Source: an uncultured Oscillospiraceae bacterium
GTDB taxonomy: Bacteria; Bacillota; Clostridia; Oscillospirales; Oscillospiraceae
Direction of reading: 5' to 3'
DNA: 64,000 bases
NCBI GenBank assembly: GCA_947625045.1
Contig: CANQMW010000015.1
Location: 1,429 to 65,428 of the forward strand
Shown here: one piece after another, positions 7,801-54,450 of the stretch
How positions within the stretch are numbered: the first letter of the stretch is position 1
How the letters are laid out: every line of letters starts with the position of its first letter
The notes under the pieces: model-generated
Seen by the model: only the letters and a program-made list of their open reading frames with translations
What the model was told of the DNA's origin: nothing
The model's database searches: none
Made by a program: the position numbers and the translations under genes

Positions 7801-7944
7801 GGTATACCTCCAGAAGTGACCACCTGCTCTCTGACAAGAACAGCGATCATTTCGCAAAATCGAGTTAGGCTGGCCGGGACCGGCAGCGCTTTTTGCGCTT
7901 ATAGTATAATCGCCATATCTAAAATCGTCAAGTCCGTTCCGCCT

Positions 7945-8832
7945 TTACGGCAATAGCGCCACCGCCGCCCGGACCGCCGGGCGCAGGGGCTCGGCGCGCC
8001 AATAGATGACGTCGTCGAAGTAGAGGTCGTCCACCGGGATGAGCCGCACGTTGGGGTCGGAAACGATGCGGTTATTCTCCGAGATGACGGAGATGCCGAT
8101 GCCCGCCTCTACGTACAGGAGCAGCGTCTCGATGGAGGCGGCCTCCCGGATGATGCGGGGCTCGAACCCCGCCCGGCGGCACACCTCCTGGAGGGTGCGG
8201 AAGCCCTGGGGCGTCTCCTCCTGGGAAAGGGCGATGAAGCTCTCGTCCCGGAGCATGGGCAATGTCACCGTGTCGTGCTGGGCCATGGGGTCCCGGGCGT
8301 TGATGGCGATGACGCCCCGGCAGGTGCTCATGATGCGCCGGACCATGGACGCGGGGATGGGCGGGGTTATGCCGCTGACCTCGCTGGTGACGATCATGTC
8401 CAGGCGGCCCGCGCCGAACTCCTGCCACAGCTTATGCATGCTGCACCGCTCCAGGCGCAGGAGGATATCCGGGTGCTCATCCTGGAAGCTTCTCAGCTGC
8501 TGAGGCACCATGGAGGACACGTTCACGCCCTCCAGCACCCCCAGAGACAGGACGCTGTCCTGCTCCTGCTGCAGGGCCCGGGCCTCCAGCAGGGACTGGT
8601 CTATCTTGTCCAGGGCCTCGGCCCACTCCTGGCTCAAAAGCCTGCCCGCCTCCGTGAGGCGCACCTGCTTGCCCACCCGGTGGAAAAGCCGCACCCCGGT
8701 GGTGTGCTCCAGCTCCGCGATGCGCTTGCTCAAATTGGGCTGGGCCGTATAGAGCTCGTTGGCTGCCCGGGAGAAGTTCTCATACCGGGCCGCCGTGATG
8801 AAATACCGGATGGCGTTCAGGGAAATGTTCAT
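7945..8832 (-). CDS. LysR family transcriptional regulator
   Basis: 295 aa. The N-terminal wHTH (IRYFITAARYENFSRAANELYTAQPNLSKRIAELE) and a LysR substrate-binding C-domain are both present. The gene is divergent from the glycosidase operon. Confidence 0.9.
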   Translation of the reverse strand: MNISLNAIRYFITAARYENFSRAANELYTAQPNLSKRIAELEHTTGVRLFHRVGKQVRLTEAGRLLSQEWAEALDKIDQSLLEARALQQEQDSVLSLGVLEGVNVSSMVPQQLRSFQDEHPDILLRLERCSMHKLWQEFGAGRLDMIVTSEVSGITPPIPASMVRRIMSTCRGVIAINARDPMAQHDTVTLPMLRDESFIALSQEETPQGFRTLQEVCRRAGFEPRIIREAASIETLLLYVEAGIGISVISENNRIVSDPNVRLIPVDDLYFDDVIYWRAEPLRPAVRAAVALLP

Positions 8833-9887: not shown

Positions 9888-11663
9888 ATGGTAGACATGA
9901 AAGCGAAGCCCTTTTTCCTGACGGATGAGGACTGCAAGTGGGTGGAGGACACCATCGCCGGGATGAGCCTGGACGAGAAGATAGGCCAGCTCTTCTTCAA
10001 CATGGGCGATAGCCGGGACGAGGAATATCTGAAGATGACGGTCAATAAGTACCACATCGGCGGCATCCGCTATAACCCCGGCAAGGCCGACGAGATATAC
10101 GAGCAGAACCGCATCCTCCAGGAGAACAGCAAGATCCCTCTCATCATCGCCTGCAACACCGAAAACGGCGGCAACGGCGCCTGCGTGGACGGCACGCCCA
10201 TCGGCTGCCAGACGAAGATCGGCGCCACCCGGGACCCCAAGTACGCCCACGACCTGGGCTACATGTCCAACAAGGAGGCCGCGGCCATCGGCTGCAATTT
10301 GTCCTTCGCCCCGGTCAGCGACATCTTCCTGAACTGGGAGAACCCGGTCATCGGCCTGCGCACCTACGGCAACGACACCGACCAGGTGGCGGCCATGGCC
10401 AAGGCGTATTTGGAGGGCGCCCATGAGAATCCCGGCTTCGCCTGCGCCGCCAAGCACTTCCCCGGCGACGGCCTGGACTTCCGGGACCAGCACGTGGCAA
10501 ACTCCGTGAACTCCTATTCCTGCGAGGAATGGGACGCCACCTTCGGCAAGGTCTATGAGACGCTGATCGACGCGGGCCTGGAGGCCATCATGGCCGGGCA
10601 CATCATGCAGCCGGCCTATACCCGCCACTTCAATCCCACCATCGCCGACGACGACATCATGCCCGCCACCCTGTCCCCGGAACTGATCACCGGCCTTCTG
10701 CGGGGCAAGCTGGGCTTCAACGGCATGGTCCTCACCGACGCCAGCCACATGGTGGGCCTCACCTGCCGCATGCAGCGCAAGGACCTGATGCCCGCCGCCA
10801 TCGCCGCGGGCGTGGACATGTTCCTGTTCTTCAACGACATGGAGGAGGACTTCAACGCCATGAAGGCGGGCTATCTGGACGGGCGCATCACGGAAGAGCG
10901 CCTCAGCGACGCCCTGCACCGCATCCTGGCCCTCAAGGCCCACATGGGCCTGCACAAAAAGGCCAAGACCGAGATCATGCCCCCCAGGGCGCAGGTCCAT
11001 GAGATCGTGGGTTGCGCGGAGCACAAGGCGGCCCAGAAGGAGATCGCCGACAAGGCCATCACCCTGGTGAAGTACAAGGACGCCGACGTGCTGCCCATGA
11101 TACCGGAGCGCTATAAGCGCATCATGATCGTGTACGTGAAGGGCCTGGAGGCCCCCGGCCTGGGCGCGCTCTTTAACCAGAACGCCGTGTCTCCCGCCGA
11201 CAAGCTGCGGGACCGGCTGAACGCCCGCGGCTTCGACGCCTTTGTGTACGAGAGCCCCATCCAGAAGCTGATGCAGCAGATACAGCGGGGCGAGAAGGCG
11301 GACCTGAACCTCTACTTCGCCGGGAAGTCCGCCATCAAGGACTTCGTGGCCGGCCAGGACCTGATCATCACCATGGTGGACATCGCCGGCGGCTTCCAGC
11401 CGGTGGCCCGGCCCGCCTTCGGCATGACCAAGGGCGGCGGCGAGATCCCCTGGTACGTCCACGAGCTGCCCGTCATTGTTGTGGGCACCCAGCAGCCCTT
11501 CGTCCTGGCGGACATCCCCCAGGCCCGGACCTATATCAACACCTACGACAGCCTGGACACTACCCTGGACGCCCTGGTGGAAAAGCTCATGACCGGCCCG
11601 GAGGCTTTCCACGGCCAGGACCCGGTGGACGCGTTCTGCGGCGTGTGGGACACGCACCTGTAA
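9888..11663 (+). CDS. Glycoside hydrolase family 3 protein (paralog 1)
   Basis: 591 aa, RBS AGGAGGAG. GH3 N-domain signatures are present: KIGQLFF, AKHFPGDG and VLTDASHM. Confidence 0.85.
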   Translation: MVDMKAKPFFLTDEDCKWVEDTIAGMSLDEKIGQLFFNMGDSRDEEYLKMTVNKYHIGGIRYNPGKADEIYEQNRILQENSKIPLIIACNTENGGNGACVDGTPIGCQTKIGATRDPKYAHDLGYMSNKEAAAIGCNLSFAPVSDIFLNWENPVIGLRTYGNDTDQVAAMAKAYLEGAHENPGFACAAKHFPGDGLDFRDQHVANSVNSYSCEEWDATFGKVYETLIDAGLEAIMAGHIMQPAYTRHFNPTIADDDIMPATLSPELITGLLRGKLGFNGMVLTDASHMVGLTCRMQRKDLMPAAIAAGVDMFLFFNDMEEDFNAMKAGYLDGRITEERLSDALHRILALKAHMGLHKKAKTEIMPPRAQVHEIVGCAEHKAAQKEIADKAITLVKYKDADVLPMIPERYKRIMIVYVKGLEAPGLGALFNQNAVSPADKLRDRLNARGFDAFVYESPIQKLMQQIQRGEKADLNLYFAGKSAIKDFVAGQDLIITMVDIAGGFQPVARPAFGMTKGGGEIPWYVHELPVIVVGTQQPFVLADIPQARTYINTYDSLDTTLDALVEKLMTGPEAFHGQDPVDAFCGVWDTHL

Positions 11664-11675
11664 GGAGGATACCCT

Positions 11676-13451
11676 ATGGTCGATCTAAAAGCCAATCCCT
11701 ATTTCCTGTCCGACGAGGACATCGCCTGGGTGGAGAAGACCATCGCGGCCATGACCGACGAGGAGAAGGTGGGCCAGCTCTTCTTCCAGCTCACCTCCAG
11801 CCAGGAGGAGGGCTATCTCAAAGAGCTCATGGAGAAATACCACCTGGGCGGCTGCCGGTATAACGGCATGCCCGGGGCGAAGGTGCTGGAGCAGAACCGC
11901 ATTTTGCAGAAATACGCCAAGGTGCCCCTCATCATCGCCTGCAACACCGAGGCCGGCGGCGACGGCGCCTGCTCCGACGGCGTGAACATCGGCTCCGGCA
12001 TCAAGATAGGCGCCACCGGCAATGCCCAATACGCCCACGACCTGGGCCGCATGGCGAACGAGCAGGCCGCGGCCATCGGCTGCAACATGGCCTTCGCGCC
12101 GGTGTGCGACATCCACTACAACTGGCAGAATGAGGAGATCATCTCCCGGGGCTTCGGCAATGACCCGGAGCGGGTCGCCGCCATGAGCCGGGCCTATCTG
12201 GACGGGGCCCACACCATCCCCGGCTTTGCCTGCGCCGCCAAGCACTTTCCCGGCAACGGCCAGGACTACCGGGACGCCCACATGGCCAACAACGTGAACG
12301 AATTCGACCGGGACCAGTGGATGGCCACCTACGGCATGGTCTACAAGACCCTCATCGACGGCGGCCTGGACGCCATCATGGGCGGGCACATCATGCTGCC
12401 GAAGTACATGCGTGAGGTAAAGCCCGGTATCACCGACGACGAGATGCTGCCCGCCACATTGTGCCCCGAGATCATGACCGGGCTATTGCGGGAGGAACTG
12501 GGCTTCAACGGCATGGTGGTCACCGACGCCAGCCACATGGTGGGCATGACGGACCGTATGAAGCGCCGGGACATGCTGCCCGCCGCCATCAACGCCGGGT
12601 GCGACATGTTCCTGTTCTTCAACGACCCGGATGAGGACTTCTCCACCATGCTGGACGCCTATAAGACCGGCGTCATCAGCGAAGCGCGCATGACCGAGGC
12701 GCTGACCCGCATCCTGGGCCTCAAGGCCCACATGGAGCTGAACAAAAAGGCCAAGGAAGAGCTTGTCCCCTCCCCCGAGGCCCTGCCTGGGGTGCTTTCA
12801 GACCCCAGCTACAAGAAGACCGCCGAGGCCATCAGCCGGGAGGCCCTGACCCTGGTGAAGTACAAGGACGAGGGCGTGCTGCCCCTGGATCCCAGGAAGA
12901 CCCGCCGAGTCATGATCGTGTACGTGAAGGGCGCGGACGGGCCCATGGCGGCCCTGATGGCCATGGCCATGGGCGCCGGCGGCAAGCGGAAAAACCCCGC
13001 CGAGGACCTGCGGGACCGGCTCATCGAAAAGGGCTTCGACGCCTTCATCTATGAGAGCCCCCTGGAGAAGATCAAAAAGCAGATCGCCGCGGGCGAGGCC
13101 CCCAGCCTGAACCTGTACTTCGCCGGGAAGAACGCCATCGCGGACTTCGTCTCCCAGATGGACCTGGTCATCACCCTCTGCGACGTGGCCAATGGGCACC
13201 CCGCCTTCGGCATGAGCAAGGGCGGCGGCGAGATACCCTGGTACGTATTCGAGGTGCCCGTGGTGGCGATAAGCGTGAACCTGCCCACCATGCTGGCGGA
13301 CATCCCCGCCGTGCGCACCTACATCAACGCCTACGACGCCAAGCCCTACACCATGGACGCGCTGGTGGAGGCGCTGGTGACCGGGCCGGAGGCATTCCAC
13401 GGGAAGGACCCCATCGACAGCTTCTGCGGTCTTTGGGATACCCGCATCTAA
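11676..13451 (+). CDS. Glycoside hydrolase family 3 protein (paralog 2)
   Basis: 591 aa, colinear with 9888..11663. Same KVGQLFF, AKHFPGNG and VVTDASHM motifs. Confidence 0.85.
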   Translation: MVDLKANPYFLSDEDIAWVEKTIAAMTDEEKVGQLFFQLTSSQEEGYLKELMEKYHLGGCRYNGMPGAKVLEQNRILQKYAKVPLIIACNTEAGGDGACSDGVNIGSGIKIGATGNAQYAHDLGRMANEQAAAIGCNMAFAPVCDIHYNWQNEEIISRGFGNDPERVAAMSRAYLDGAHTIPGFACAAKHFPGNGQDYRDAHMANNVNEFDRDQWMATYGMVYKTLIDGGLDAIMGGHIMLPKYMREVKPGITDDEMLPATLCPEIMTGLLREELGFNGMVVTDASHMVGMTDRMKRRDMLPAAINAGCDMFLFFNDPDEDFSTMLDAYKTGVISEARMTEALTRILGLKAHMELNKKAKEELVPSPEALPGVLSDPSYKKTAEAISREALTLVKYKDEGVLPLDPRKTRRVMIVYVKGADGPMAALMAMAMGAGGKRKNPAEDLRDRLIEKGFDAFIYESPLEKIKKQIAAGEAPSLNLYFAGKNAIADFVSQMDLVITLCDVANGHPAFGMSKGGGEIPWYVFEVPVVAISVNLPTMLADIPAVRTYINAYDAKPYTMDALVEALVTGPEAFHGKDPIDSFCGLWDTRI

Positions 13452-42273: not shown

Positions 42274-43239
42274 TCACTCAGTCCGTTCCGAATTTTGAAC
42301 GATTTGCTTTTTCATTTCGTCAACATCCGCCTCTGTCAAACTTGCGCGATAGTCAATGTGCTTTGGATTGATTTGCTCCGATAAATCATTTACATTGCAA
42401 CAATCATAGACCACATTTTGTACTCTAATTATTCTTTCTGGCTTTTTTTGCAGTTCTAAATCGTCCTGAGAAAAAATAACGAAGTTCATCCCCACATGAC
42501 TTTGGAAGCTCGGATACGATATCCCCTGAACTGAAGCATCTTTATCCCTAAGAGCATTAACCAAATATTGTGTTGGTAGATACTCCAAATCTGCGTCTCC
42601 TCTACGAATGGGACGCGAGAACTGGAATGACAACTCTCTTGCGGTTGCATTTAAGTAAATGTTTATATCCTCGTCATCTATGAGCATCGCCTTTAAGTCT
42701 TGCCCGGTGCGTGGTAACTTAATTATCTTAATTGGCGACGGGTTTACATACTCTACTACATTCACAAGCTCTAAGATTGACGGACGAACCTCCGAGACTG
42801 CTGTGTATATGTTATCTGTTACATATAAGTCGGGAATTCCCTTTGGACTGGCTCGGTTTGGACCGGCCTTCTCTACGGGTGGCACGCCAACATCAGAAGG
42901 ATCAGAATACCCTCTGATTAGGCTCTTTCTAGGTATCCAAACCGGCATTTTCTCATTATCATGTCCCAAATAATCTATGTGCTTTTGAACTGTTAATTTC
43001 CACCCTGGGATAATCCTTGCTCTATAGAATACCGATCCCACAGGAACTTCAACTGTGAAGTACTTTGCTAGCAAGTCCGTAACTTCATCAATGAACTCTC
43101 TGTCTTCCTTTCGGGGAATAAAACGTGCATTGTGAATCAGGTTATAACAAAACATGTTCCATCGATGATGGAAATATGTACTTTTTGCCGCAAATTCAAA
43201 GTTCTTCATTCTCTTTTTTAGTTCTTGCTCTTCCTTCAT
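42274..43239 (-). CDS. RES domain protein with helical N-terminal extension; no adjacent Xre/DUF2384-type antitoxin
   Basis: The R-E-S triad is in context: SVFYRARI, NRASPKGIPDLYVTDNIYTAVSEV and QGISYPS. The start is either ATG 43239 (RBS AGAGGAAG) or GTG 43266, which overlaps the hsdR stop (GTGA). Confidence 0.7.
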   Translation of the reverse strand: MKEEQELKKRMKNFEFAAKSTYFHHRWNMFCYNLIHNARFIPRKEDREFIDEVTDLLAKYFTVEVPVGSVFYRARIIPGWKLTVQKHIDYLGHDNEKMPVWIPRKSLIRGYSDPSDVGVPPVEKAGPNRASPKGIPDLYVTDNIYTAVSEVRPSILELVNVVEYVNPSPIKIIKLPRTGQDLKAMLIDDEDINIYLNATARELSFQFSRPIRRGDADLEYLPTQYLVNALRDKDASVQGISYPSFQSHVGMNFVIFSQDDLELQKKPERIIRVQNVVYDCCNVNDLSEQINPKHIDYRASLTEADVDEMKKQIVQNSERTE

Positions 43240-43262
43240 TTCATCTTCCTCTAAAGCAAAAA

Positions 43263-46232
43263 TCACTGCGCTTCTCTCAAGCTTTTATAAATCTCTTCCG
43301 TAAATATTCCCAGCACCTGGCGTTTGAGTTCCTCGTCACTCAGGAGCAGCGAGAAGAAATCCTGGTTTTGTGAGAGACCCTCAATCAGCGCGTCATCGAT
43401 GTCATCGAAATAGGAAAACTCAAAATCCTTAACGGTATTGCTCTTGGCGCTGGCCCGCAGTTTTTCCGACTTCAAGAGAATATCCCGTATCTGGAGCATC
43501 GCCTTGACCGCCACATCCGTGTCATAGGCCCTGCCGGTGCGGCTGTTTATCTCAGCAATAATTTCGGACAGGCGCTCTTCCTTTGCTTCTGTGAGGCCGA
43601 ATGTCTCCGCCGTCGGGAGTTTCACCACCGGCTGTGCGACGAGCTTCGGCTCGACGTGTTCCGCTTCTTTCTTCTGCACAAAGTTGGTTGCCCTGATTTT
43701 ACCGTCCAGATCATAGCCGCCGCCCGGATGCTTGATATTGATATACGCCAGCAGATATGTAATGAAATTGTACTTTTTATGCAGGTCAGTGTCTTCAAAA
43801 CAGGATACCTGCAGCAAAAACTCATAGAACCGAACAAAGTGCCGCAGCTGGGCAACGATCTCCTGCTGGGTAAGCGGCTCATATTGCTCGATCATGTTCT
43901 TTGCCCGTTTGAAATAGAACGTGAGTTTCTGCTTGTCCCTGGGCGTTATATTCGCCTTATAGAGCAGTCCGTTTGCCCTATCAATATCATCGGGATCGAG
44001 TACGGCATAGGCGTCGATCCTAGCTTCCAGATCATAGATCGCTGTCGGCGTTACGGAATTGGACAGCAACGTGGTCGTATAATACGGCGCAAAGGCAGTC
44101 TTGATTTCCTCATAGCTGTTCACAAAATCCAGCACAAAAGTCTTTTTCTCAAAGGGCGGACAGATACGGTTCAGCCTGGAGAGTGTCTGTACCGCCGACA
44201 CTCCTTTGAGTTTTTTCAGCACATACATCGCGCAGAGTTTCGGCTGGTCGAACCCGGTCTGATACTTGTTCGCTACCAGCAGAACCTGATACTCATTCTC
44301 GTCAAACTCTCTCGGAAGCCGATTCTCCGGGAACCCGTTCATGGACGCCTCGGTGTACTCCGTCTCGTCGTCCGGCAGGGTCACCTTGCCAGAGAATGCC
44401 ACCAGTGCCTTAATATCGGTATAACCCTTCTTCTTGGTGTAATCCTCAAAAGCCTGCCGGTACTTCACTGCTCCCTGCCGGGAGGCAGTTATCACCATGG
44501 CCTTTGCCATGCCGCCAAGTTCCGGCATTACCGTGGTACGGAAATGCTCAACTATGACTTCCACTCGCTGGGCGATATTTGTCTCATGCAGTTCTACGAA
44601 ACGTGCAATCTGCCGCTTGGCGTCCGATGTTTTGCAGCGAGGGTCCTCCTCGATCTCCTTGTTGATTTGATAAAAAGTCTTATACGTCGTGTAATTCTGG
44701 AGCACATCAAGTATAAAACCTTCCTCAATAGCCTGCTTCATAGAATAGATGTGGAAAGCCTCCCGCTGCCCCTTTTTGTTCAACCGACCGAAAAGCTGGA
44801 TAGTCGTAGGCTTAGGCGTGGCCGTGAAAGCGAACATGGACACGTTCGCCTGTTTGCCATTCCTGCGAATCTCATCGGTAATCATGTCCTCGACATCGCC
44901 GTAATCCGGTTCGCCAGCACCAAGAGACTTGGTTACGGCGGCCATATCCTTGCCAGCCGTGGAGGAGTGCGCCTCGTCAATGATCACAGCAAACCGTTTT
45001 TCTTTCAGCCCCTTTACGCTGTCCACAATATAGGGGAATTTCTGAATGGTGGTAGCGATGATCTTCGTGTTGCCATTGAGTGCATTCGCCAGATCGTTGG
45101 AATTACACTTGTCATCCATCACTCGAATCAGGCCAGCCTTGTGTTCCATGCCCATGATCGCCTTTTGCAGCTGCCGATCCACTACTACCCGGTCAGTGAC
45201 TATGATAATATTATCAAATATAATATGGTTGTTCGCGTCATGCAACGATGTCAATCGGTGCGCCAGCCAGGCGATGGAGTTGGTCTTGCCGGAACCGGCG
45301 CTGTGCTGGATCAGGTAATTCTGTGTGGTGCCGTTCGTGCGCACATCCGCCAGAAGCTGGCGGATAACGTCAAGCTGGTGGTAACGGGGGAATATGATGT
45401 TCTCCGACTTCTTCGTCTTGCCAGTCAGTTCGTCGCGGCTCTCGTTCGCGTCAATGAAGATGAACTTGCTGACAAGGTCGAGAATCGTATCCTTTTTCAG
45501 GATGTCCTCCCACATATAAGAGACGCTGTACTTATCCTCAAAAACAGGGTTGCCCGCACCGGCATTCACGCCCTCGTCGCGGCCCATGTTGAACGGCAGA
45601 AAGAATGTGGCATTTCCGGCCAGTTTGGTGGTCATATAGACCTGCTCAAGGTCCAGAGCGAAGCAGACAAGGCACCCAGCTTTAAAGCGGAACAAGCGGG
45701 TCCCAGGATCACGATCCGTGCGGAACTGATAAATCGCGTCCTGATAAGATTGCCCGGCGAGGTTGCATTTCAGTTCAAAGGACATAATGGCAAGGCCGTT
45801 GAGGAAGATTACAAGGTCGATGCGTTCCTCATCGCTTGCCCATACTTCCTCCATTACAGAGAATATATTCTTTTCGTACTTAGCCAACAGTTCCTTGTTG
45901 AAAGTGGTCGCCGGTTTTGTGTACATTAGTTCCAACTGCATATTGGAGATCTCGACGCCATGCTTCAATATATCCAGCAGACTGCCGTGCGCCTTCGTCG
46001 CCTCAGCATTGATGAAGCTGACGATTGTTTCCTCCAAATCGGCCTTGTATATCTTCCGCAGGGCGTCCATCGTCTCTGCCTGGGTATCCCATAGGAACCG
46101 AAACAGCATCTCCCGGTCCATGGCGAAGCGATGGTCATAGTCCGTTTGGCTGCGGATGATATATCCATTATCCTGGGAGAGGCGCTCCATTATGTAGTGC
46201 TGATATTCTTTTTCGGATAGGATGTAATTCAT
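43263..46232 (-). CDS. hsdR: Type I restriction enzyme R subunit
   Basis: 989 aa. N-terminal PD-(D/E)xK (IDLVIFLNGLAIMSFELK), SF2 helicase motifs (QHSAGSGKT, VIIDEAHSS) and a C-terminal helical domain are present. Confidence 0.9.
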   Translation of the reverse strand: MNYILSEKEYQHYIMERLSQDNGYIIRSQTDYDHRFAMDREMLFRFLWDTQAETMDALRKIYKADLEETIVSFINAEATKAHGSLLDILKHGVEISNMQLELMYTKPATTFNKELLAKYEKNIFSVMEEVWASDEERIDLVIFLNGLAIMSFELKCNLAGQSYQDAIYQFRTDRDPGTRLFRFKAGCLVCFALDLEQVYMTTKLAGNATFFLPFNMGRDEGVNAGAGNPVFEDKYSVSYMWEDILKKDTILDLVSKFIFIDANESRDELTGKTKKSENIIFPRYHQLDVIRQLLADVRTNGTTQNYLIQHSAGSGKTNSIAWLAHRLTSLHDANNHIIFDNIIIVTDRVVVDRQLQKAIMGMEHKAGLIRVMDDKCNSNDLANALNGNTKIIATTIQKFPYIVDSVKGLKEKRFAVIIDEAHSSTAGKDMAAVTKSLGAGEPDYGDVEDMITDEIRRNGKQANVSMFAFTATPKPTTIQLFGRLNKKGQREAFHIYSMKQAIEEGFILDVLQNYTTYKTFYQINKEIEEDPRCKTSDAKRQIARFVELHETNIAQRVEVIVEHFRTTVMPELGGMAKAMVITASRQGAVKYRQAFEDYTKKKGYTDIKALVAFSGKVTLPDDETEYTEASMNGFPENRLPREFDENEYQVLLVANKYQTGFDQPKLCAMYVLKKLKGVSAVQTLSRLNRICPPFEKKTFVLDFVNSYEEIKTAFAPYYTTTLLSNSVTPTAIYDLEARIDAYAVLDPDDIDRANGLLYKANITPRDKQKLTFYFKRAKNMIEQYEPLTQQEIVAQLRHFVRFYEFLLQVSCFEDTDLHKKYNFITYLLAYINIKHPGGGYDLDGKIRATNFVQKKEAEHVEPKLVAQPVVKLPTAETFGLTEAKEERLSEIIAEINSRTGRAYDTDVAVKAMLQIRDILLKSEKLRASAKSNTVKDFEFSYFDDIDDALIEGLSQNQDFFSLLLSDEELKRQVLGIFTEEIYKSLREAQ

Positions 46233-46275
46233 AATCCGTACCCCTTCTCATATGTTACGCTATGTTCAAAATAAA

Positions 46276-47316
46276 TTATTGATCTCTAAGCCTCTTAATT
46301 AGTTGCCTTGCAAAGAGAATTGCGATTTGGTCACAGGTATAATCGTTGGATTTTATGCCTTGGATATCCACTATGGATGGATAGTGGTTCTGTAAGTCTG
46401 TTCTTGTAATGTTATGCAGTATTGGCAATATCACCTTTTGCCCATTCTTGTTCTGTCTTCCAAGAAACTCTGTCAGTTCGCGCTCAGTCCATTCCCTTCC
46501 GAAGAAGTTTTCAGATATTACGATAATAGCAAACTCGGACTTCTCTGTCCCCTCAAGTATGCGCTCCTTCCAGTTATCTCCCCATTCGAGCGATTCTTTG
46601 TCATAAAAAATCTTAATGTCAAGCATATTCAAAGATTGATACAGTTTATCAACTAGTTCAACCTTATCTTTACTAGCATGAGAAATGAAAACGTCATATT
46701 TACTCAACTGCATTCCTATATTATCAGATGCAAGGTTTTCTTGATTAATATGTTTACGTTTTCTATATTCTGTGTCACCACATATACTCTCCAAGACAGA
46801 GACCAAATCATTATAAGTACTCAATTTACGATGAAACAAAATGGATTCAATTCGTTTTGCAAGAGGATGATCCGTCAAATACCTATGGTAGAATATTTCA
46901 AAATCATTGATCCAAATATTACTTGGACGGTTGTATTCGTTCATATCAGTGCCAATCGGAGCAGCATTAATCGGAGAATTAATCATCTTGGTTCTGTGAA
47001 GAAGTTCAAACAGTTCCCTCTCAAAAGGGGAAAAATGAGCTTCCGTTTTCAATTTATCTAATTCAGCCCTGTAAATGCGTTCTTCATATGTATAACCATC
47101 TTTCAGGACTTGAATGTGATATGGAATATCATCGGCCCAAAGCACGGAAATTAGGTTATTATTCTTTAGTTCTCCAAAACAGCCACGTACAATTATTTCT
47201 TCCTTATATTGCATTTTTTCAAATCGTTTCCGCCAATAGTCCGGCTCCGTCTCATGCTCTATTATTTCTGCAAGAAGTTTTCTTGCCTCGTCTGAGATAT
47301 ACGTAGCCTCTTTCAT
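46276..47316 (-). CDS. TIR-domain protein with an unassigned ~200-aa N-terminal domain
   Basis: The C-terminal region is YDVFISHASKDKVELVDKLYQSLNMLDIKIFYDKESLEWGDNW...FAIIVISENFFGREWTERELTEF, matching the TIR beta-A/BB-loop/alpha-C pattern. The ATG overlaps the hsdS stop (ATGA). Confidence 0.75.
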   Translation of the reverse strand: MKEATYISDEARKLLAEIIEHETEPDYWRKRFEKMQYKEEIIVRGCFGELKNNNLISVLWADDIPYHIQVLKDGYTYEERIYRAELDKLKTEAHFSPFERELFELLHRTKMINSPINAAPIGTDMNEYNRPSNIWINDFEIFYHRYLTDHPLAKRIESILFHRKLSTYNDLVSVLESICGDTEYRKRKHINQENLASDNIGMQLSKYDVFISHASKDKVELVDKLYQSLNMLDIKIFYDKESLEWGDNWKERILEGTEKSEFAIIVISENFFGREWTERELTEFLGRQNKNGQKVILPILHNITRTDLQNHYPSIVDIQGIKSNDYTCDQIAILFARQLIKRLRDQ

Positions 47317-47969
47317 TGCTCAATTCCCTTCTTCCCTGTGACACATTCAAAAACAATAGACTGTCTATATTTCTCAAGAGCATCAAGTTGTCTCTGCAAA
47401 CTAGATGATAATTCCGCAATCTTACTACAACGACTATCTAAAAAGTCAGCTATTGATTCTTGCTCGTCTAAGGGGGGATAAGGAATGTATGTATTTCCAA
47501 AATCTTCAAAAGCAATGTTTTTCCCATCACGTAAACTCATAGTATGAGAATTCATTTCACTAATAAAACACTTGTCCTTAAACAGGTACTTGTAGAATCG
47601 ATCACAGATCTGTCGAACCGGATAAAACACCTGATAAGCAGGTGAAACTACACCTTCATATTTTGAGTACTCAAAGCCACCTTGAAAACTTCTAAGGCTA
47701 ATACAAAAATCGCCTTTATGAATTGTTTTGAAGGCCGAGAGGTCTGTGTCATCTTTCACTTTAACGACATTAGCACTTGTCAGTTCTTCAAGTAATGCCT
47801 GCGGAATAACGCCAAAATGTTGTGTTGGCGAAAGAAGCTGCAATTCAATATTATTTCCCTTTTCATTTCGCTGAGTAAATATGTACTTTCCTTTGTAGAA
47901 TTCCCAATAGTCAGGGACTTCACCAAGCCACTCAGCAAGAGGATTAACTGTCAGTGCCATAATCATCAC
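47313..47969 (-). CDS. hsdS: Type I R-M specificity subunit, half-size (single target-recognition domain)
   Basis: About 215 aa with one TRD plus a conserved helix (PPLDEQESIADFLDSRCSKIAEL...IVFECVTGKKGI). The best-spaced start is ATG 47960, 8 nt after AAGGAG. Confidence 0.8.
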   Translation of the reverse strand: MMIMALTVNPLAEWLGEVPDYWEFYKGKYIFTQRNEKGNNIELQLLSPTQHFGVIPQALLEELTSANVVKVKDDTDLSAFKTIHKGDFCISLRSFQGGFEYSKYEGVVSPAYQVFYPVRQICDRFYKYLFKDKCFISEMNSHTMSLRDGKNIAFEDFGNTYIPYPPLDEQESIADFLDSRCSKIAELSSSLQRQLDALEKYRQSIVFECVTGKKGIEQ

Positions 47970-47981
47970 TCCTTATACGCC

Positions 47982-50084
47982 TTATACGAACAAATCCCTT
48001 GTCTGCATTATTATATCTTGTGCTAAACTCTCAAGTTCATTTTTTAAGAGATCACTGTTCTCTGGGAATTTAGGTTTATAAAATTTCCGGGTAAAAATAA
48101 TTTCGGCTCCCGTTTTAATAATTTGATTCTTTGCCGTTAAGTTTTCCTCAAAGAAAGCTGCTGCATCAGGGATATATGGAAGTACTTCCCGACGCATATA
48201 GGTCTCTATATCGATCTTTACTGGAACTTTCTCCGTATCTTTCGATTCTTTGTCATATAATGTATATCCTTTTCGATCACGCTGTATCTCAGCCCGCTTG
48301 TCCATCGCGGAAAGCCCATCCGCAATTTTTTCAAGCAGCTTCTTATCGCTTGTTACCTGTGTAAGGGCAGCCGTCAGCACCGGCATAAAGGCAGCCGGAG
48401 AATAGTAGATGCTCTCGGAAACTGCATCCTGCAACGCGGCAAGGATAGCATCATAAACCGATTTGTTGTCTTGGTACTTCTCCAGTTTTCTCTGATTCTT
48501 TCCGGACAGTTCCTCGACGTTTTCCAATTCACTGACCTTCGCTTCGTCATAAAGCGAAGACAGTGACCCTTTTGAGAGCATGGAAGCAATGCGCCCTTCT
48601 GTGATAGCATAGCTACGCTGGAGAGGCTGCATCACCGTGTACTCTCGATAGATGAACTCCTCATTGTCATAGATTTTACAGTATTCATTCTCTACAAAAT
48701 TAGCATATAGTTTAGTAATGACAGAACGATCCATAGGGGTAATTTCATTTTTCTTGTCGCCAAGTCCACGTCTCAACTTGTGAAAACAGGACGACGCATC
48801 AATCAATTGTATCTTTCCTTTGCGTTCCTTTCGCTTGTTTTTTGAAAGAACCCAAATATATGTTGCTATTCCCGTATTGTAGAACAAATCACTTGGTAGC
48901 TGTATTATTGATTCAATAAAATCGTTTTCCAAAAACCATTTTCTTATCTGGCTCTCACCAGAAGACGCTCCACCGGTAAACAGCGGGCTACTGTTCTCTA
49001 TTATGGCGGCGCGGCCAAATTCATCGTCCATTTTGTCGATAGCGGATTGCAGAAACAGCATCTGCATATCGCCCGCACTGGGCAACCCTGCGCCCCAACG
49101 ACCAGAAAAACCCTTCTGATGCTCAGCCCTAACCGCTTCCTCTACGCCGTCGGCAGCATCGCTGCCGCCCCACGCCTGTCCAAACGGCGGGTTCTCCAGA
49201 ACAAAGCGCATTTTGGTGTCTTTGAATCGGTCTGCAACCATAGTGTCCTGATAACAAATTCTATCTGCACTCTGCCCCTTAATGAGCATCTCCGCCAAAC
49301 ACATAGCATAAGATTCAGGATTGTTTTCCTGCCCAAATAGGCGCACGTCGGCGGTCGGATTATATCGCTTTATAAAGTTATATCCTGTGGACAGCATGCC
49401 GCCCGTGCCGCAAGCCTGATCCAAGATGGTAATGACCTTACCATCGTCAAAAATGTCGTCACAGCCCTCGGCCAGCAGGATGTTGACCATCAGTTTGATG
49501 ATGTCGCGGCCGGTGTAGTGGTCGCCAGCTTCGGCGTTTTCAGAGAACTTCCGGATCAGTTCCTCAAAGATATACCCCATCTTTACGTTGTCGATGGTGC
49601 GCGGATCTAAATCCAATTCAGAGAATGCTTTCACGACAGATAGCAGACGGTTGTTCTTGTCCATCTTGTCGATCTCTTCACCAAAGTTCAGTCCTCGCTC
49701 CTTAGACAACAATATTTCCAGCACATTGGCAGAGAACCCTTCCAGGTAGCTTTTGAAGTTAGCGGCAATATGATCCGCATCGTTCACAAGCTCGGCAAGG
49801 TCATACTCGCTGGTATTGTAGAACGGGAAGCCGGAAACACGGTACATTGCCTTTGCCGGGTAATTTGGATTGGCCTTATACTGAGCCACGACAGCCTGCT
49901 TTGTCGGCGCAAGGGCACACTCGAACCGTCGAATGATCGTCATAGGGATGATGACGTCCTTATACTTGTCGCTCCGGTACGGCCCGCGCAGTTTGTTGGC
50001 GATGGACCAGATGAAGTTTACCTCGGTAGAGACATCTATGGGAGAATCATCCCACATCGCGTCAATGATTTTTCTGTCAGCCAT
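47982..50084 (-). CDS. hsdM: Type I R-M DNA methyltransferase subunit (N6-adenine), long form
   Basis: 700 aa. LDQACGTGGML (motif I) and VLENPPFGQAWGG (motif IV, NPPF) are present. The HsdM N-domain includes IWSIANKLRG. A ~200-aa C-terminal extension follows. Confidence 0.9.
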   Translation of the reverse strand: MADRKIIDAMWDDSPIDVSTEVNFIWSIANKLRGPYRSDKYKDVIIPMTIIRRFECALAPTKQAVVAQYKANPNYPAKAMYRVSGFPFYNTSEYDLAELVNDADHIAANFKSYLEGFSANVLEILLSKERGLNFGEEIDKMDKNNRLLSVVKAFSELDLDPRTIDNVKMGYIFEELIRKFSENAEAGDHYTGRDIIKLMVNILLAEGCDDIFDDGKVITILDQACGTGGMLSTGYNFIKRYNPTADVRLFGQENNPESYAMCLAEMLIKGQSADRICYQDTMVADRFKDTKMRFVLENPPFGQAWGGSDAADGVEEAVRAEHQKGFSGRWGAGLPSAGDMQMLFLQSAIDKMDDEFGRAAIIENSSPLFTGGASSGESQIRKWFLENDFIESIIQLPSDLFYNTGIATYIWVLSKNKRKERKGKIQLIDASSCFHKLRRGLGDKKNEITPMDRSVITKLYANFVENEYCKIYDNEEFIYREYTVMQPLQRSYAITEGRIASMLSKGSLSSLYDEAKVSELENVEELSGKNQRKLEKYQDNKSVYDAILAALQDAVSESIYYSPAAFMPVLTAALTQVTSDKKLLEKIADGLSAMDKRAEIQRDRKGYTLYDKESKDTEKVPVKIDIETYMRREVLPYIPDAAAFFEENLTAKNQIIKTGAEIIFTRKFYKPKFPENSDLLKNELESLAQDIIMQTRDLFV

Positions 50085-50193
50085 TACTTTGTCCTCTTTT
50101 TATTCTTACAGTATCAAGATTAATCATTGCAACCCCAATCAGCCTGTCCACCTGCTTACCATGACCATGTGGGTGTTCAAAACAAAGAATCAG

Positions 50194-51204
50194 TCAAAAG
50201 GGGAGAGCTTCCTCCTCGTCTGGTTCGTCATCTCCTTCGAGGCCAAGCAACTGTCTTGCGCGAAGAAGGAGTTGATCATAAGTCATAATATGAAGCTGGT
50301 GATATGAGGCATTAAGTATTCTCAACGCTTTTGATTTGTCCTCTCCCCAGTCGTTTGATCGTCCATACACAAGTAAGCATTGCGGTTTAACCGTCTTTGT
50401 GCCTCCAACGCGCTCTAAGAACTCGACTGAATTCGACTGAAGTTCAATCTTATATAAATAGTTTAGACACTGCATTATTGCACCTGAGAGTGTTGCCGAT
50501 GGACAATAGTTACCGTGTGAATCGGGACCAACCCAGAAAGGAATCGTTGGTTTTTTTATCTCTACAACATCCAAAAAACCGTCGAGTGAACGCATAAGAT
50601 AGTCCGCAATATCATCAACATCAATATCTCTTTCCGGAAGTATATTTAGGAACTCAGATCCCAGAATCCATTTATTATGCTCAAACCATTCCTGCCAATA
50701 TGATTCAGGGTAGTTTTGCTCAATGGCATTCCTGAACTCTTGTATGGCATAGTTTCTTCTTGCAGCCGTAATTGCAACACTCAGGTTTTCGGTAAGTACG
50801 CCCGATTCCAACAGCTTGTCCACTACTTCGTCATCTGAAATCCCAAGTTCGCGTACTTTGGAGAATAACTTTGCTGCATCCTCATCAGCTGCAATGAATT
50901 CGGTCATTCCCACATTCAACGGCACATAATAATCCTGAATATAGTCAATCAAATTATCTAGCTCAGGTGTTGTAAGTGTAATCGATTTATCAACTTTCTC
51001 TTTGAATCCTTCAGCGATTTTACTCATTCTTGCAATTTTCAGAGATACGATTTTCTCCCCTGTTGAGTTGTGCGTATTTCTAAAAAACACAGCCCGGCAA
51101 GAACTTCTCACTCCGGAACTCAATTCTTTTGCTTCAACATATTCTTGCCCACTCCTAGATGTTTTAACTATTTTCCACTCCTGCATAACAACTCTCTCTT
51201 TCAA
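50194..51204 (-). CDS. Shedu-like DUF4263 (PD-(D/E)xK nuclease) defence protein
   Basis: The C-terminal half is WQEWFEHNKWILGSEF...DGFLDVVEIKKP...QCLNYLY...PQCLLVYGRS...IMTYDQLL, which follows the SduA/DUF4263 layout. The start is either TTG 51204 or ATG 51186. Confidence 0.65.
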   Translation of the reverse strand: MKERVVMQEWKIVKTSRSGQEYVEAKELSSGVRSSCRAVFFRNTHNSTGEKIVSLKIARMSKIAEGFKEKVDKSITLTTPELDNLIDYIQDYYVPLNVGMTEFIAADEDAAKLFSKVRELGISDDEVVDKLLESGVLTENLSVAITAARRNYAIQEFRNAIEQNYPESYWQEWFEHNKWILGSEFLNILPERDIDVDDIADYLMRSLDGFLDVVEIKKPTIPFWVGPDSHGNYCPSATLSGAIMQCLNYLYKIELQSNSVEFLERVGGTKTVKPQCLLVYGRSNDWGEDKSKALRILNASYHQLHIMTYDQLLLRARQLLGLEGDDEPDEEEALPF

Positions 51205-51259
51205 AGATTAGGTTCATGTCGATACAATATGATTGACCAACCCCAAGCTTAGACTATAT

Positions 51260-52609
51260 CTATAACCTTTGTTTCTTCAACCCCACCCCGATCAATCTGT
51301 CCGCCTGATCCGCCATAAACAACGGGATATTCAGCACGTCATCGTCCAGCTTCAGGTTGTCCAGAGAAAACCGAATACGGAGCTTAACTTCCTCCGGGAA
51401 CAGTTCCTTGAACTTCCGCAGGCTTCGGCTGGCGGTATTGGCCTCGGACTTGACCTCCACCGGGAAAATGTCGTTCTCCCGTTGGATCAGGAAATCCACC
51501 TCATATGGCGGGTTGGTCTGGCTCCAATAGCGGGGCATGACCTCGAACTGGGTGATGAGCGTTTGCAGCACATAGTTTTCCGTCAGCGCGCCTTTAAACT
51601 CCGTGAACAAGCGGTTCCCCTCGCCAAAGGCGGTCGGCGCCAGCTGTGCCAGCCGCCGCAAGACGCCCACATCCGCCAGGTAGATCTTGAACGCGGACAA
51701 ATCATCATAGGCCGACACGGGCAGCCGTGGCGCGGAACTGCGGTAGACCTTATGCACCAAGCGGGCGTCCACCAGCCATTGCAGGGCGTCTTCGTACTCC
51801 CTGGCCCGGGCCCCCTCCTTCACGACCTTGTAGATGAACTTTTTATTCTCGCGCGCAAGCTGCGAGGGAATGGACTTCCATACCATGGATATTTTCGGGA
51901 ATTCTTTCACGTCCGGGTGCTTGCCGAAATCCCGCTCATAGGCCCCGATGATGTTGGACAGCGCCTCCTGCATGGCCTCCACGTCCCGCTCCTGGGTCCA
52001 CATAGCCACCGGCTCCGGCATGCCGCCCGTGACGTAATACATCTTCAACCGCTCATAAAGCGGGTTGAAAAAGGCGTCCGGTATCGGCTCAATGGCATCC
52101 ACGCGGTCCATATACTCCACAAGATTCCCGTCCCCGTTGGCCAGCAGAAATTCTGTGAACGTCATGGGGTCGATCTGCATGAAGTTGACCTTGCCCACCG
52201 GGAAGGAGGCCGGCTTCGCCAGCGCGATGCCCAGCAGGGACCCGGCGCAGGCGACGTGATACTGCGGCGCGTTCTCACAAAAATACTTCATGGAATTGAT
52301 GACCTTCGGGCAGTCCTGCACCTCGTCGAAGATGATCAGGGTCTTCTCCGGGACGATTTTCTGCCCGCTGGCCAGCATCAAATTTTGCAGGATGCGCTCC
52401 ACGTCCTTGGTGGTCTCGAAAAACTGCTTATATTCCTCGTTCTCGTCAAAGTTGAAGTAGGCAGTGTTGTCATAGTACCGCCGCCCGAACTCTTTGAGCA
52501 CCCAGGTCTTGCCCACTTGCCGTACGCCTTTCAGGATCAGCGGCTTGCGGTGCTTGGAATTTTTCCACTTCAACAGGTCATTTAAGATCGATCGCTCCAC
52601 AAAAGACAC
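51260..52609 (-). CDS. AAA-type ATPase with DUF4143-like C-terminal domain
   Basis: GTG start. ILKGVRQVGKTW (Walker A) and LIIFDEVQ (Walker B) are present. The architecture is typical of the AAA_14/DUF4143 ATP-binding proteins. Confidence 0.7.
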   Translation of the reverse strand: MSFVERSILNDLLKWKNSKHRKPLILKGVRQVGKTWVLKEFGRRYYDNTAYFNFDENEEYKQFFETTKDVERILQNLMLASGQKIVPEKTLIIFDEVQDCPKVINSMKYFCENAPQYHVACAGSLLGIALAKPASFPVGKVNFMQIDPMTFTEFLLANGDGNLVEYMDRVDAIEPIPDAFFNPLYERLKMYYVTGGMPEPVAMWTQERDVEAMQEALSNIIGAYERDFGKHPDVKEFPKISMVWKSIPSQLARENKKFIYKVVKEGARAREYEDALQWLVDARLVHKVYRSSAPRLPVSAYDDLSAFKIYLADVGVLRRLAQLAPTAFGEGNRLFTEFKGALTENYVLQTLITQFEVMPRYWSQTNPPYEVDFLIQRENDIFPVEVKSEANTASRSLRKFKELFPEEVKLRIRFSLDNLKLDDDVLNIPLFMADQADRLIGVGLKKQRL

Positions 52610-52980: not shown

Positions 52981-54450
52981 TCAACGTTCTCTTTTGTCAT
53001 TTTGTCTTTCCTGCTCGATTATCGGCTGGCCGCGCTGATCCAGCGCTACATTGACGTGGTGCCGGACCTGCAGCAGCTTCGTGAGATCATCCCGCAGGGG
53101 CTTGTACTTGGCGTAGGCCGCCTCATGCTCCCGCGCCAGCCTTTCCATCTCCCGCTGCCAAGCGGAGATGGGCAGCTTGCCGTCCGGCGTGAGGACATCC
53201 TTCAACTTGCGCCTGGTCATATAGAACAGCCGCAGCTCGCGTTCATGCTCCTGTCTGTATTTCTCCCGCTGGCCCTTCCAGCGGATGCTGTTCATCTCGT
53301 CAAAGACAGGCTTTAGCCGGGCGTAGTTCTCCGCCTGCTGGAGCAGGTCCTTCAGCTCCTTCTGGCGTTTGTTGGAATCATCAAGCTCCGCCTTCAGCGC
53401 GGCGACCTGACCGCTGATGAAATCGACCCGCTCCGTCAGCGCCTCCACCGTGAACAGTTTGTTCTCCATGATGTAGTTATAGGCTTCCACAAACTGCTTC
53501 AGATTGCCCAGCTTTGCCTTCTGGCTCCACGCTCCGGCGTTTCTCATGGCAATGTAATCGCCCAGAAGCTGGCCCAGGTTGGGCTGCTGGGGCTGGGACA
53601 GCTCACGTCTGACATCTTTCAGCCAGTCCAGCAACATGGTGATCTTCTTCCGCAGGCTGCGGATGGCCGCGTTGGCAGAGCGAATCCAGCGGTTGAGATC
53701 GCCCTTGTCGGTAGGGATGCCCTTTGCCTCCATCTGGCGGACGGCGGGACCCTCATGGACCGTCGGTATCTGGTCGATGCCTTGACGTTCATAGGAGCGG
53801 TGGTCTATCCGGCAGTCCAGGCCCTTTTCCTCAAACTTGGCGTTGCACAGCGCGGCCCACGCCTCCCGCCAGGATCCCAGCCGCTCCGGGCTGCCCCAAT
53901 CAGTGGTAGGCACAGCGTCAAAGGTCGCCTTGCCGTTCTCGTCAAGAATGCGGTCGCCGTTCTCGTCCAAGTGATACACGCGGCGCTGCTTGTATCCCCA
54001 CTTCCCGTTCTCTTTCAACGGCCGGATTGGACAGAGGATGTGGAAGTGGGGATTTTGTATCTCTTTGTCCGGCTTATGGATGGAGAAGTCTGCGATCATA
54101 CCCCGGCTGACAAGCTGCTCCGATACAAATTGCCTTGCAAGAGCGATGTTCTCCTCCAGGGAAAACTCGTTCTGCAAGGCAACGTCAAAGCTGTATGCAA
54201 GCTGGGCGTCTTTGTTCCGCTCTGCCTGCTCCAAGGCGTTCCATAGGGTCTGCCGGTCCGCGTATTCCAGCGGCGCATTTGTCGGGAGAAGTATCTCGGA
54301 ACAGATCACGCCTTTCTTGTGGCTGTAATCGCTGGTCTCGCCGTAGTATTCGCTGTAAAGTTTCTCTCCGGCGCGGTAGGCGGCGGAAGCGATGGCGGAC
54401 TGACCGGCGCTGCGCTGGATCTGGGTGACGTGGAAATGATAGAGGACCAT
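52981..54450 (-). CDS. MobA/MobL-family (MOBQ-type) relaxase
   Basis: The N-terminus MVLYHFHVTQIQRSAGQSAIASAAYRAGEKL and the HxH-type block (NPHFHIL) are present, followed by a coiled-coil C-terminus. Confidence 0.85.
   Translation of the reverse strand: MVLYHFHVTQIQRSAGQSAIASAAYRAGEKLYSEYYGETSDYSHKKGVICSEILLPTNAPLEYADRQTLWNALEQAERNKDAQLAYSFDVALQNEFSLEENIALARQFVSEQLVSRGMIADFSIHKPDKEIQNPHFHILCPIRPLKENGKWGYKQRRVYHLDENGDRILDENGKATFDAVPTTDWGSPERLGSWREAWAALCNAKFEEKGLDCRIDHRSYERQGIDQIPTVHEGPAVRQMEAKGIPTDKGDLNRWIRSANAAIRSLRKKITMLLDWLKDVRRELSQPQQPNLGQLLGDYIAMRNAGAWSQKAKLGNLKQFVEAYNYIMENKLFTVEALTERVDFISGQVAALKAELDDSNKRQKELKDLLQQAENYARLKPVFDEMNSIRWKGQREKYRQEHERELRLFYMTRRKLKDVLTPDGKLPISAWQREMERLAREHEAAYAKYKPLRDDLTKLLQVRHHVNVALDQRGQPIIEQERQNDKRER

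Follow-up and report, generated by a model that had tools for sequence, protein, structure and literature searches.

A type I restriction-modification (R-M) operon of an uncultured Oscillospiraceae bacterium carries, between its genes hsdS and hsdR, a gene that probably encodes a TIR immune protein which destroys nicotinamide adenine dinucleotide (NAD). The operon lies in a window of 64,000 nucleotides (GenBank assembly GCA_947625045.1, contig CANQMW010000015.1, positions 1,429 to 65,428 of the forward strand), in which the gene occupies positions 46276–47316 on the minus strand. Its product, here termed the TIR protein, belongs to a real, widespread and uncharacterised family of R-M-embedded TIR proteins with new N-terminal modules. 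The reading preferred here, at a probability of about one in two, is that of an autonomous sensor-effector of the abortive-infection type, which is co-expressed with the R-M system and carried as cargo of its operon. This is a better reading than the one offered by the original prediction, which was made from the window alone and proposed, from the position of the gene, that it could be a guard of the R-M system resembling the anticodon nuclease PrrC.

The TIR domain and its active site

The C-terminus of the TIR protein is a true TIR domain, as had been proposed from the sequence of the open reading frame (ORF). It spans residues 205–346 (positions 46279–46704, minus strand) and belongs to the clade of AbTir, BtTir, TcpB and PdTIR. 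The Pfam TIR_2 profile matches residues 209–309 at 1e-19, with 71.7 bits against a cutoff of 28 bits, and the Pfam TIR profile matches at 3.9e-15, with 56.5 bits against a gathering score of 21.3. The solved structures closest to it in sequence are those of AbTir, BtTir, TcpB (also termed BtpA) and PdTIR, with E values of 1e-24 to 1e-19 and identities of 30–36%; in the PDB, AbTir is matched at 1.1e-24 with 34–36% identity and BtTir at 5e-23. Foldseek comparison gave template modelling (TM) scores of 0.79–0.84 at a probability of 1.00 against BtTir, PdTIR and AbTir, for a model whose TIR part reaches a pLDDT score (predicted local distance difference test) of only 55–82.

The catalytic glutamate is present. 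The putative residue is E280, encoded by a GAA codon at positions 46477–46479 (minus strand), which lies within “REWTERELTEF” and aligns with the glutamate of the AbTir motif “DWTNYEL” (the stretch “WTNYEL”), which we take to be E208, the catalytic glutamate of AbTir. In 24 homologs E280 does not vary, and neither do S212, H213, A214, D217, K218 and W276. Moreover, the motifs FISHAS.DK, W-x-x-x-E-L and ILPI.H are common to the TIR protein and to AbTir, BtTir, TcpB and PdTIR. This TIR domain would consume NAD+ once it is switched on, probably by oligomerising, as other TIR enzymes do.

The N-terminal modules

The N-terminal ~195 residues of the TIR protein have no match in Pfam, NCBIfam or PADLOC, and a fold search with Foldseek returned no significant match in the PDB (best E 0.18) or in BFVD (best E 0.038). 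The statement that this part matches no recognised family is thereby borne out across these five collections. The weak fold matches that were returned are all winged-helix proteins (GntR, MarR, ORC2 and Rio2). The AlphaFold model of the N-terminal 195 residues is confident, with a mean pLDDT of 88, and it divides into two modules. The first, residues 9–75 (47092–47292, minus strand), is a predicted winged helix of the order H-H-H-beta-beta, and it is acidic. The second, residues 77–194 (46735–47088, minus strand), is a helical module with six helices in the model, at residues 77–91, 97–111, 125–147, 153–162, 167–179 and 182–194. This helical module is found in full-length and short relatives alike, and its invariant residues include F98, E99, N129, W135, N137, D138, H150, R155 and R163. 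The winged helix, on the other hand, is absent from the short relatives of ~260 amino acids, here termed short-N forms.

Across the family, the winged helix has a median isoelectric point (pI) of 4.7 and a net charge of -5. Because it is acidic throughout, it is more likely to bind protein than DNA, and a role as a DNA-binding or controller protein is unlikely. The same acidity also weakens the idea that it binds directly to acidic DNA-mimic proteins.

The two modules are separate from each other and are shuffled. A profile search with the N-terminal domain among 1.84 billion representative proteins found only 365 relatives at E<=0.001, in which the modules precede the TIR domain in the order winged helix and helical part, in the reverse order, each singly, or as two winged helices in tandem; many further relatives are stand-alone winged helices of ~120 amino acids. 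The modules are also fused to TIR domains of the CAP12/Pycsar type (P0162 and P0246), to divergent TIR_2 domains and to Hypoth_Ymh (P0144 and P0257). This pattern of shuffling and fusion is typical of a sensor or regulatory module that is placed on exchangeable toxic domains.

Fusions of the winged-helix or helical modules to other effectors are located at L176 (8001–9122), L182 (1324–2334) and L174 (1724–2716). N-module proteins with Hypoth_Ymh neighbour Mrr and MmeI in a defence island, and a DUF2513 protein on a phage- or plasmid-like contig.

A non-defence role was also considered, in which the TIR protein would be a winged-helix regulator or accessory R-M subunit that acts on hsd expression or specificity, with the TIR domain serving only as an interaction scaffold. 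The predicted winged-helix fold and the tight inclusion of the gene in the operon would suit such a role. However, the acidity of the winged helix (pI ~4.7) argues against DNA binding, neither the catalytic glutamate nor the AbTir-type active-site motifs vary, these N-modules also occur joined to other toxin-type domains, and 14 of 37 sister operons described below lack any such gene. Such a role is accordingly very improbable.

Junctions of the gene with hsdS and hsdR

The layout of the gene was confirmed by direct reading of the sequence. It is an ORF of 346 amino acids with an ATG start, and in the string “gag caA TGA aag” this ATG (47316–47314) overlaps the TGA stop codon of hsdS (47315–47313), which gives an ATGA at positions 47313–47316 (minus strand). 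The stop codon of the TIR gene is at 46276–46278, and the ATG of hsdR is at 46232. The spacer of 43 nucleotides between them (46233–46275, minus strand) contains GAGAAGGGG, a run that resembles a Shine-Dalgarno or ribosome-binding sequence.

On the coding strand, no strong terminator-like hairpin was found between hsdM and the end of the gene for a RES-domain protein that follows hsdR, so co-transcription of all of these genes fits the sequence. The tight packing and the lack of a strong terminator-like site thus support the expectation that the TIR protein is co-expressed with the R-M subunits.

Family size and linkage to R-M genes

The family of the TIR protein comprises 1,553 clusters at 90% identity (E<=1e-3), many of them full-length at 55–70% identity, and it includes a variant of 415 amino acids with an insert of ~75 residues. 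The identical TIR protein is encoded on 9 metagenome contigs. Among annotated plasmids and phages, no full-length relative was found; the plasmid matches are to the TIR domain only, at ~35% identity, and the N-terminal domain has no phage match.

A gene-neighbourhood census anchored on the TIR gene covered 80 loci in species-level reference genomes. Most of these belong to Clostridia of the gut and rumen, while Streptococcus, Bacteroides, Elusimicrobia and Coriobacteriia contribute a few. These loci were annotated by iterated profile searches seeded with the Hsd proteins of the window. Linkage was counted only in adequately flanked loci, 19 with full-length and 37 with short-N homologs, and copies with no hsd gene within 10 kb were regarded as solo. 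Full-length homologs lie between hsdS and hsdR in 11 of 19 loci, beside hsd genes in 13 and without hsd genes in 6. For the short-N forms, the corresponding counts are 13, 21 and 16 of 37. Overall, the hsdS-TIR-hsdR arrangement is found in 24 of the 56 loci. The linkage expected from the window therefore recurs in homologs from many species, and it is frequent but not obligate.

In most loci the junctions are as tight as in the window. In 25 of 32 hsdS-TIR loci from other species, the hsdS stop and the TIR start are -4 to +4 nucleotides apart, and hsdR begins 3–51 nucleotides past the TIR stop in 24 of the 25 loci in which it is within 200 nucleotides.

Solo copies are found in mobile elements or defence islands, and they retain all of the invariant residues at ~55% identity; one of them, in Sellimonas catena, is on a MobL element. 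Their neighbours are heterogeneous and include no common partner. A SIR2, SLOG, Macro or other known receptor for cyclic ADP-ribose (cADPR) was sought in the operon and in the homolog neighbourhoods, and none was found. The absence of a Thoeris-type partner and the heterogeneity of the solo neighbours indicate that the system has no conserved second component.

These findings bear on the possibility that the TIR protein is a signal synthase as in Thoeris, making a cADPR isomer for an effector encoded elsewhere, for example the RES protein or the product of an unlinked gene. AbTir and BtTir make 2'cADPR, so that the closest solved relatives of the TIR domain are producers of cADPR isomers; in addition, the PADLOC profiles for the Thoeris TIR protein ThsB match the TIR protein at 2.5e-23. 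The operon also contains a second gene related to NAD, that for the RES protein. Against this, none of the known receptors is encoded nearby, and the RES gene accompanies only the closest relatives of the window, while its own homologs are solo elsewhere. The family is thus without a conserved partner, RES can be rejected as a conserved partner or receptor, and membership of Thoeris can be rejected likewise, since neither the operon nor the homolog loci contain a ThsA-type gene (SIR2/SLOG, Macro or TM). Signal synthesis is therefore an improbable function.

The site after hsdS

A second census was anchored on HsdM and covered 37 closely related hsdMSR operons from metagenomes and 20 more distant ones. 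In the 37 sister operons, the junction between hsdS and hsdR contains a TIR gene in 10 cases, other genes in 13 and nothing in 14. In the 20 more distant operons it never contains a TIR gene, and other inserts are present in 12. The other occupants include DUF4238, FRG/PDC-S15, GmrSD, a Schlafen-AlbA2/HATPase protein and small unassigned proteins, and their ORFs likewise start at the hsdS stop or a few nucleotides from it. Of these occupants, DUF4238 and FRG belong to the sister operons, and GmrSD or Schlafen-like genes are present in the more distant ones. GmrSD, a family of type IV restriction enzymes, acts autonomously. Because such occupants abut hsdS as closely as the TIR gene does, the close coupling to hsdS reflects the site itself rather than the TIR gene, and the position behind hsdS serves as a cargo slot of a general kind.

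Base composition is in keeping with exchange at this site. The G+C content is 50.6% for hsdR, 46.3% for hsdM, 37.7% for hsdS, 36.9% for the TIR gene, 40.7% for the RES gene and 41.3% for the Shedu gene upstream (positions 42274–51204), compared to ~59% for the host. As a block of low GC content flanked by hsdM and hsdR, hsdS and the TIR gene look like a swapped cassette of hsdS plus cargo. This composition suggests that hsdS, the TIR gene and the other cargo came from donors of lower GC content than hsdM and hsdR.

A recurrent ORF of ~131–147 amino acids occupies the same slot in several sister operons (L100, L101, L103, L104, L105, L131 and L142). The two that were tested, from L100 and L104, have no Pfam or PADLOC match, and these ORFs may constitute another uncharacterised family of embedded genes.

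Autonomous effector or guard of restriction

In the preferred reading, the TIR protein would work as a single self-contained polypeptide, with sensing or regulation at its N-terminus and the TIR effector at its C-terminus. The acidic winged helix and the helical module would form the regulatory or sensing part, and the TIR activity would not strictly require the Hsd proteins. The gene would be cargo in the variable region downstream of hsdS, co-transcribed and translationally coupled. Because of this co-transcription and coupling, DNA restriction as a first line of defence and NAD+ depletion as a second line would be made and transferred as one unit.

The alternative is a guard of the kind known from the E. 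coli prr locus, where PrrC is embedded in the type I system EcoprrI. By this analogy, the N-modules would dock the TIR protein on HsdM2S(R) or on Mod/Res and hold its TIR domains apart and silent. An anti-restriction protein such as Ocr, ArdA or a Stp-like peptide would then bind or distort the R-M complex, upon which the TIR protein would be freed, oligomerise and deplete NAD+. The TIR gene does occupy the same hsdM-hsdS-X-hsdR slot as prrC, and both would be embedded second-line suicide effectors beside a type I R-M system. The start of the gene at the hsdS stop in most loci would favour co-assembly of its product with HsdS, and a winged helix that more plausibly binds protein than DNA would suit docking.

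Nevertheless, the position of the gene does not support the guard as the original prediction supposed. About a third of the full-length homologs and over 40% of the short-N homologs are found without hsd genes within 10 kb, and depending on the form, 32–43% of the loci are solo. According to Payne et al. (bioRxiv 10.1101/2024.01.29.577857), PrrC, by comparison, occurs almost solely as a gene embedded in type I R-M systems, while the TIR family is embedded in roughly 35–58% of its loci. The slot itself is a generic cargo site, empty in more than a third of the sister operons and otherwise open to unrelated genes, among them the autonomous GmrSD, at equally tight junctions. In addition, PrrC consists of an ABC-ATPase and an anticodon nuclease, and it has no sequence or domain relationship to the TIR protein, in which Pfam, PADLOC and NCBIfam detect neither of these domains. 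Masking of PrrC by Hsd proteins has been demonstrated; for the TIR protein it is suggested by analogy.

Several observations nonetheless weigh against full autonomy. Where a copy is solo, the genome may have R-M systems outside the 10 kb examined. Across 17 loci with complete genes, distances between TIR proteins track those of HsdM (rho 0.80) and HsdR (rho 0.66), compared to 0.80 for HsdM against HsdR (p<=5e-4 in each case), although several of these loci are close relatives, so that their independence is overstated. The TIR protein thus appears to co-diversify with HsdM and HsdR, which counts in favour of the guard. The TIR gene also immediately follows hsdS in type I systems of two unrelated families, that of the 700-residue HsdM in the window and one resembling EcoEI. 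In the EcoEI-like operons, which have the order hsdR-hsdM-hsdS (L047 and L062), it follows hsdS directly or behind other cargo; because of these operons, the constant feature is placement just downstream of hsdS and not ahead of hsdR, which, like the occurrence of relatives outside type I systems, speaks against inferring a PrrC-like guard from the position of the gene. Moreover, relatives are found outside type I systems, one after a type III mod-res pair (L020) and two after type IIG enzymes resembling Eco57I and MmeI (L054 and L055). A protein that joins the N-modules to a different TIR clade (P0246) is encoded in a type III system, with mod on one side of its gene and res on the other. Judged from these neighbourhoods, R-M linkage is much stronger than ordinary co-location in defence islands, and a functional tie would fit as well.

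The recurrence of the N-modules in both type I families, in type III and in type IIG contexts, and across effector clades, is the best support for the guard. It can also be turned against it, in that one docking module is unlikely to suit two unrelated HsdMS families, type III Mod/Res and type IIG enzymes. Taken together, a PrrC-like guard is not specifically supported, and with a chance well below even it is better treated as a hypothesis than as a finding. Somewhat more doubtful still is its wider form, in which the winged-helix and helical modules would be a general R-M adaptor and the family would consist of widespread TIR guards that deplete NAD+ when anti-restriction proteins disable the R-M system. 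Such guards would apply the logic of PrrC and of the Ronin system to a TIR effector of innate immunity, and they would be common in gut Clostridia.

Ronin provides, next to PrrC with EcoprrI, the other precedent for a guard. It comprises RonA and an HsdMS decoy, and this R-M-like complex senses Ocr and ArdA (Silas et al., bioRxiv 10.1101/2023.04.06.535777). Ronin likewise has its effector gene in close linkage with hsdS and hsdM, which makes it a conceptual precedent. However, RonA is a membrane protein of 61 amino acids and most Ronin loci lack hsdR, whereas the locus in the window has an intact hsdR and a soluble, cytosolic TIR protein of 346 amino acids. Homolog loci that seemed to have only hsdM, hsdS and the TIR gene, as in Ronin, were considered as well. 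For L047 and L062 this arrangement was rejected, since an EcoEI-type hsdR lies upstream of hsdM, and a similarly sized ORF occupies the corresponding position in two other apparent cases (L050 and L063).

The two readings differ in what they would mean. If the TIR protein is an autonomous module, a large family of about 1,500 clusters, mostly in gut Clostridia, would add new N-terminal sensors to the bacterial TIR repertoire, and the 3' side of hsdS would be a portable slot in which backup defences travel as cargo. If, on the other hand, the TIR protein is gated by the restriction complex, R-M integrity would have its first guard that acts by depleting NAD+, the logic of PrrC and Ronin would extend to TIR enzymes and to type III systems, and phage proteins of the Ocr or ArdA type would be predicted to be lethal triggers in these hosts.

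Relation to other TIR proteins and embedded genes

AbTir, BtTir, TcpB (BtpA) and PdTIR resemble the TIR protein in that a helical N-terminal region precedes a C-terminal TIR domain. Their N-terminal regions, however, have no detectable similarity to its winged helix and helical module. TIR proteins of the AbTir type are usually treated as virulence factors or as models for NADase activity, and not as R-M-embedded genes.

SpbK, from the element ICEBs1 of Bacillus subtilis, is a single-gene abortive-infection system on a mobile element, with an N-terminal sensor and a C-terminal TIR domain. It is a model of an autonomous TIR protein that senses a phage protein directly. The TIR protein has only a marginal PADLOC match to SpbK (E 0.0026, residues 158–235) and is not a member of that family, and we know of no R-M embedding for SpbK.

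Embedded genes have been reported to be frequent in BREX, DISARM and type I R-M systems, and a guilt-by-embedding screen of them yielded 145 untested candidates for phage defence that are now included in PADLOC (Payne et al., bioRxiv 10.1101/2024.01.29.577857). One of these candidates, the single-gene PDC-S66, belongs to the same TIR subfamily as the TIR protein, with matches of 2e-43 for the TIR protein and of 1e-41 to 1e-45 for eight relatives. Genes embedded in one of these three kinds of system were the source of the PDC-S66 model, as of the other candidates, and the gene in the window is R-M-embedded as well. However, the TIR protein matches only positions 138–274 of the 282 in the profile (about 49%), which is the TIR half, and the eight relatives also match this half alone (~136–277), leaving the N-terminal ~135 profile positions unmatched. 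Full membership of PDC-S66 was therefore rejected. Because the N-terminal half of the profile is unmatched, the TIR protein is best described as a sister form with different N-modules.

With regard to novelty, no tested TIR-in-hsd guard or system was found in the literature, most subscription journals lying outside the search, and to that extent the claim that none has been described stands. It was overstated in so far as PDC-S66 means that R-M-embedded TIR proteins of this subfamily are already catalogued, as an untested candidate. The text of Payne et al. contains no description of PDC-S66, and the text of its supplement mentions neither PDC-S66 nor TIR.

The host operon and its mobile setting

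The type I R-M system that hosts the TIR gene is complete, with hsdM, hsdS and hsdR all present and intact, and these assignments bear out the description of the locus as an hsdM-hsdS-X-hsdR slot like that of prrC. The methyltransferase gene hsdM (47982–50084, minus strand) encodes 700 amino acids with a long C-terminal extension and matches Pfam N6_Mtase at 1.3e-56, Pfam HsdM_N at 1.7e-21 and PADLOC MTase_I at 8.8e-230. The specificity gene hsdS (47313–47969, minus strand) encodes 218 amino acids from a GTG or 215 from an ATG. It matches Pfam Methylase_S at 1.6e-10 and PADLOC Specificity_I at 5.4e-49, over one half of a profile of 436 positions, and is a natural half-size form with one target-recognition domain. 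The gene for the winged-helix, helical and TIR protein follows, and then hsdR (43263–46232, minus strand), which encodes a restriction and translocase subunit of 989 amino acids with Pfam matches to HSDR_N, ResIII, SWI2_SNF2 and a T1R_D3-like domain and a match of 4.6e-58 to TIGR00348 (hsdR).

A half-size specificity subunit is expected to work as a dimer on a symmetric target. The form of 218 amino acids is also present in a 96%-identical Oscillospiraceae locus (L011), and a further locus (L029) is similar, with an ORF of 201 amino acids; the HsdS proteins of most relatives have 400–500 amino acids.

Downstream, the RES-domain gene (42274–43266, minus strand) abuts the hsdR stop and encodes 330 amino acids from a GTG or 321 from a later ATG. 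Its product has an N-terminal extension of ~130 residues without a Pfam match, and no Xre-type antitoxin gene lies beside it. The RES protein is a second putative NAD+-targeting enzyme of this operon. Its close relatives number only about 16; of the two that were examined, both solo, one is a chromosomal orphan and the other is located next to NikA and a relaxase on a conjugative element.

Directly upstream of hsdM, positions 50194–52609 (minus strand) encode the Shedu protein SduA (PADLOC 3e-121) and an AAA_14/DUF4143 ATPase (PDC-S01, 4e-184). A MobA_MobL relaxase is encoded past these genes, at positions 52981–54450. The whole stretch from 42 to 54.5 kb has the appearance of defence cargo belonging to a mobilisable element. 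Where contigs encode the identical TIR protein, recombinase genes are found beyond both ends of the gene block.

Additional embedded genes occur in other operons of the family. A distant homolog of 415 amino acids (P0059) is encoded directly after hsdS, with extra genes on either side, and an N-module relative (P0221) lies 185 nucleotides after a type I hsdR. In an operon with the 415-residue variant (L005), a gene for 275 amino acids (7914–8741) lies between hsdM and hsdS and one for 434 amino acids (11365–12669) lies between the TIR gene and hsdR, neither with a match in Pfam, NCBIfam or PADLOC. This operon is flanked by GmrSD upstream and by an OLD-like ATPase and a UvrD-like helicase downstream.

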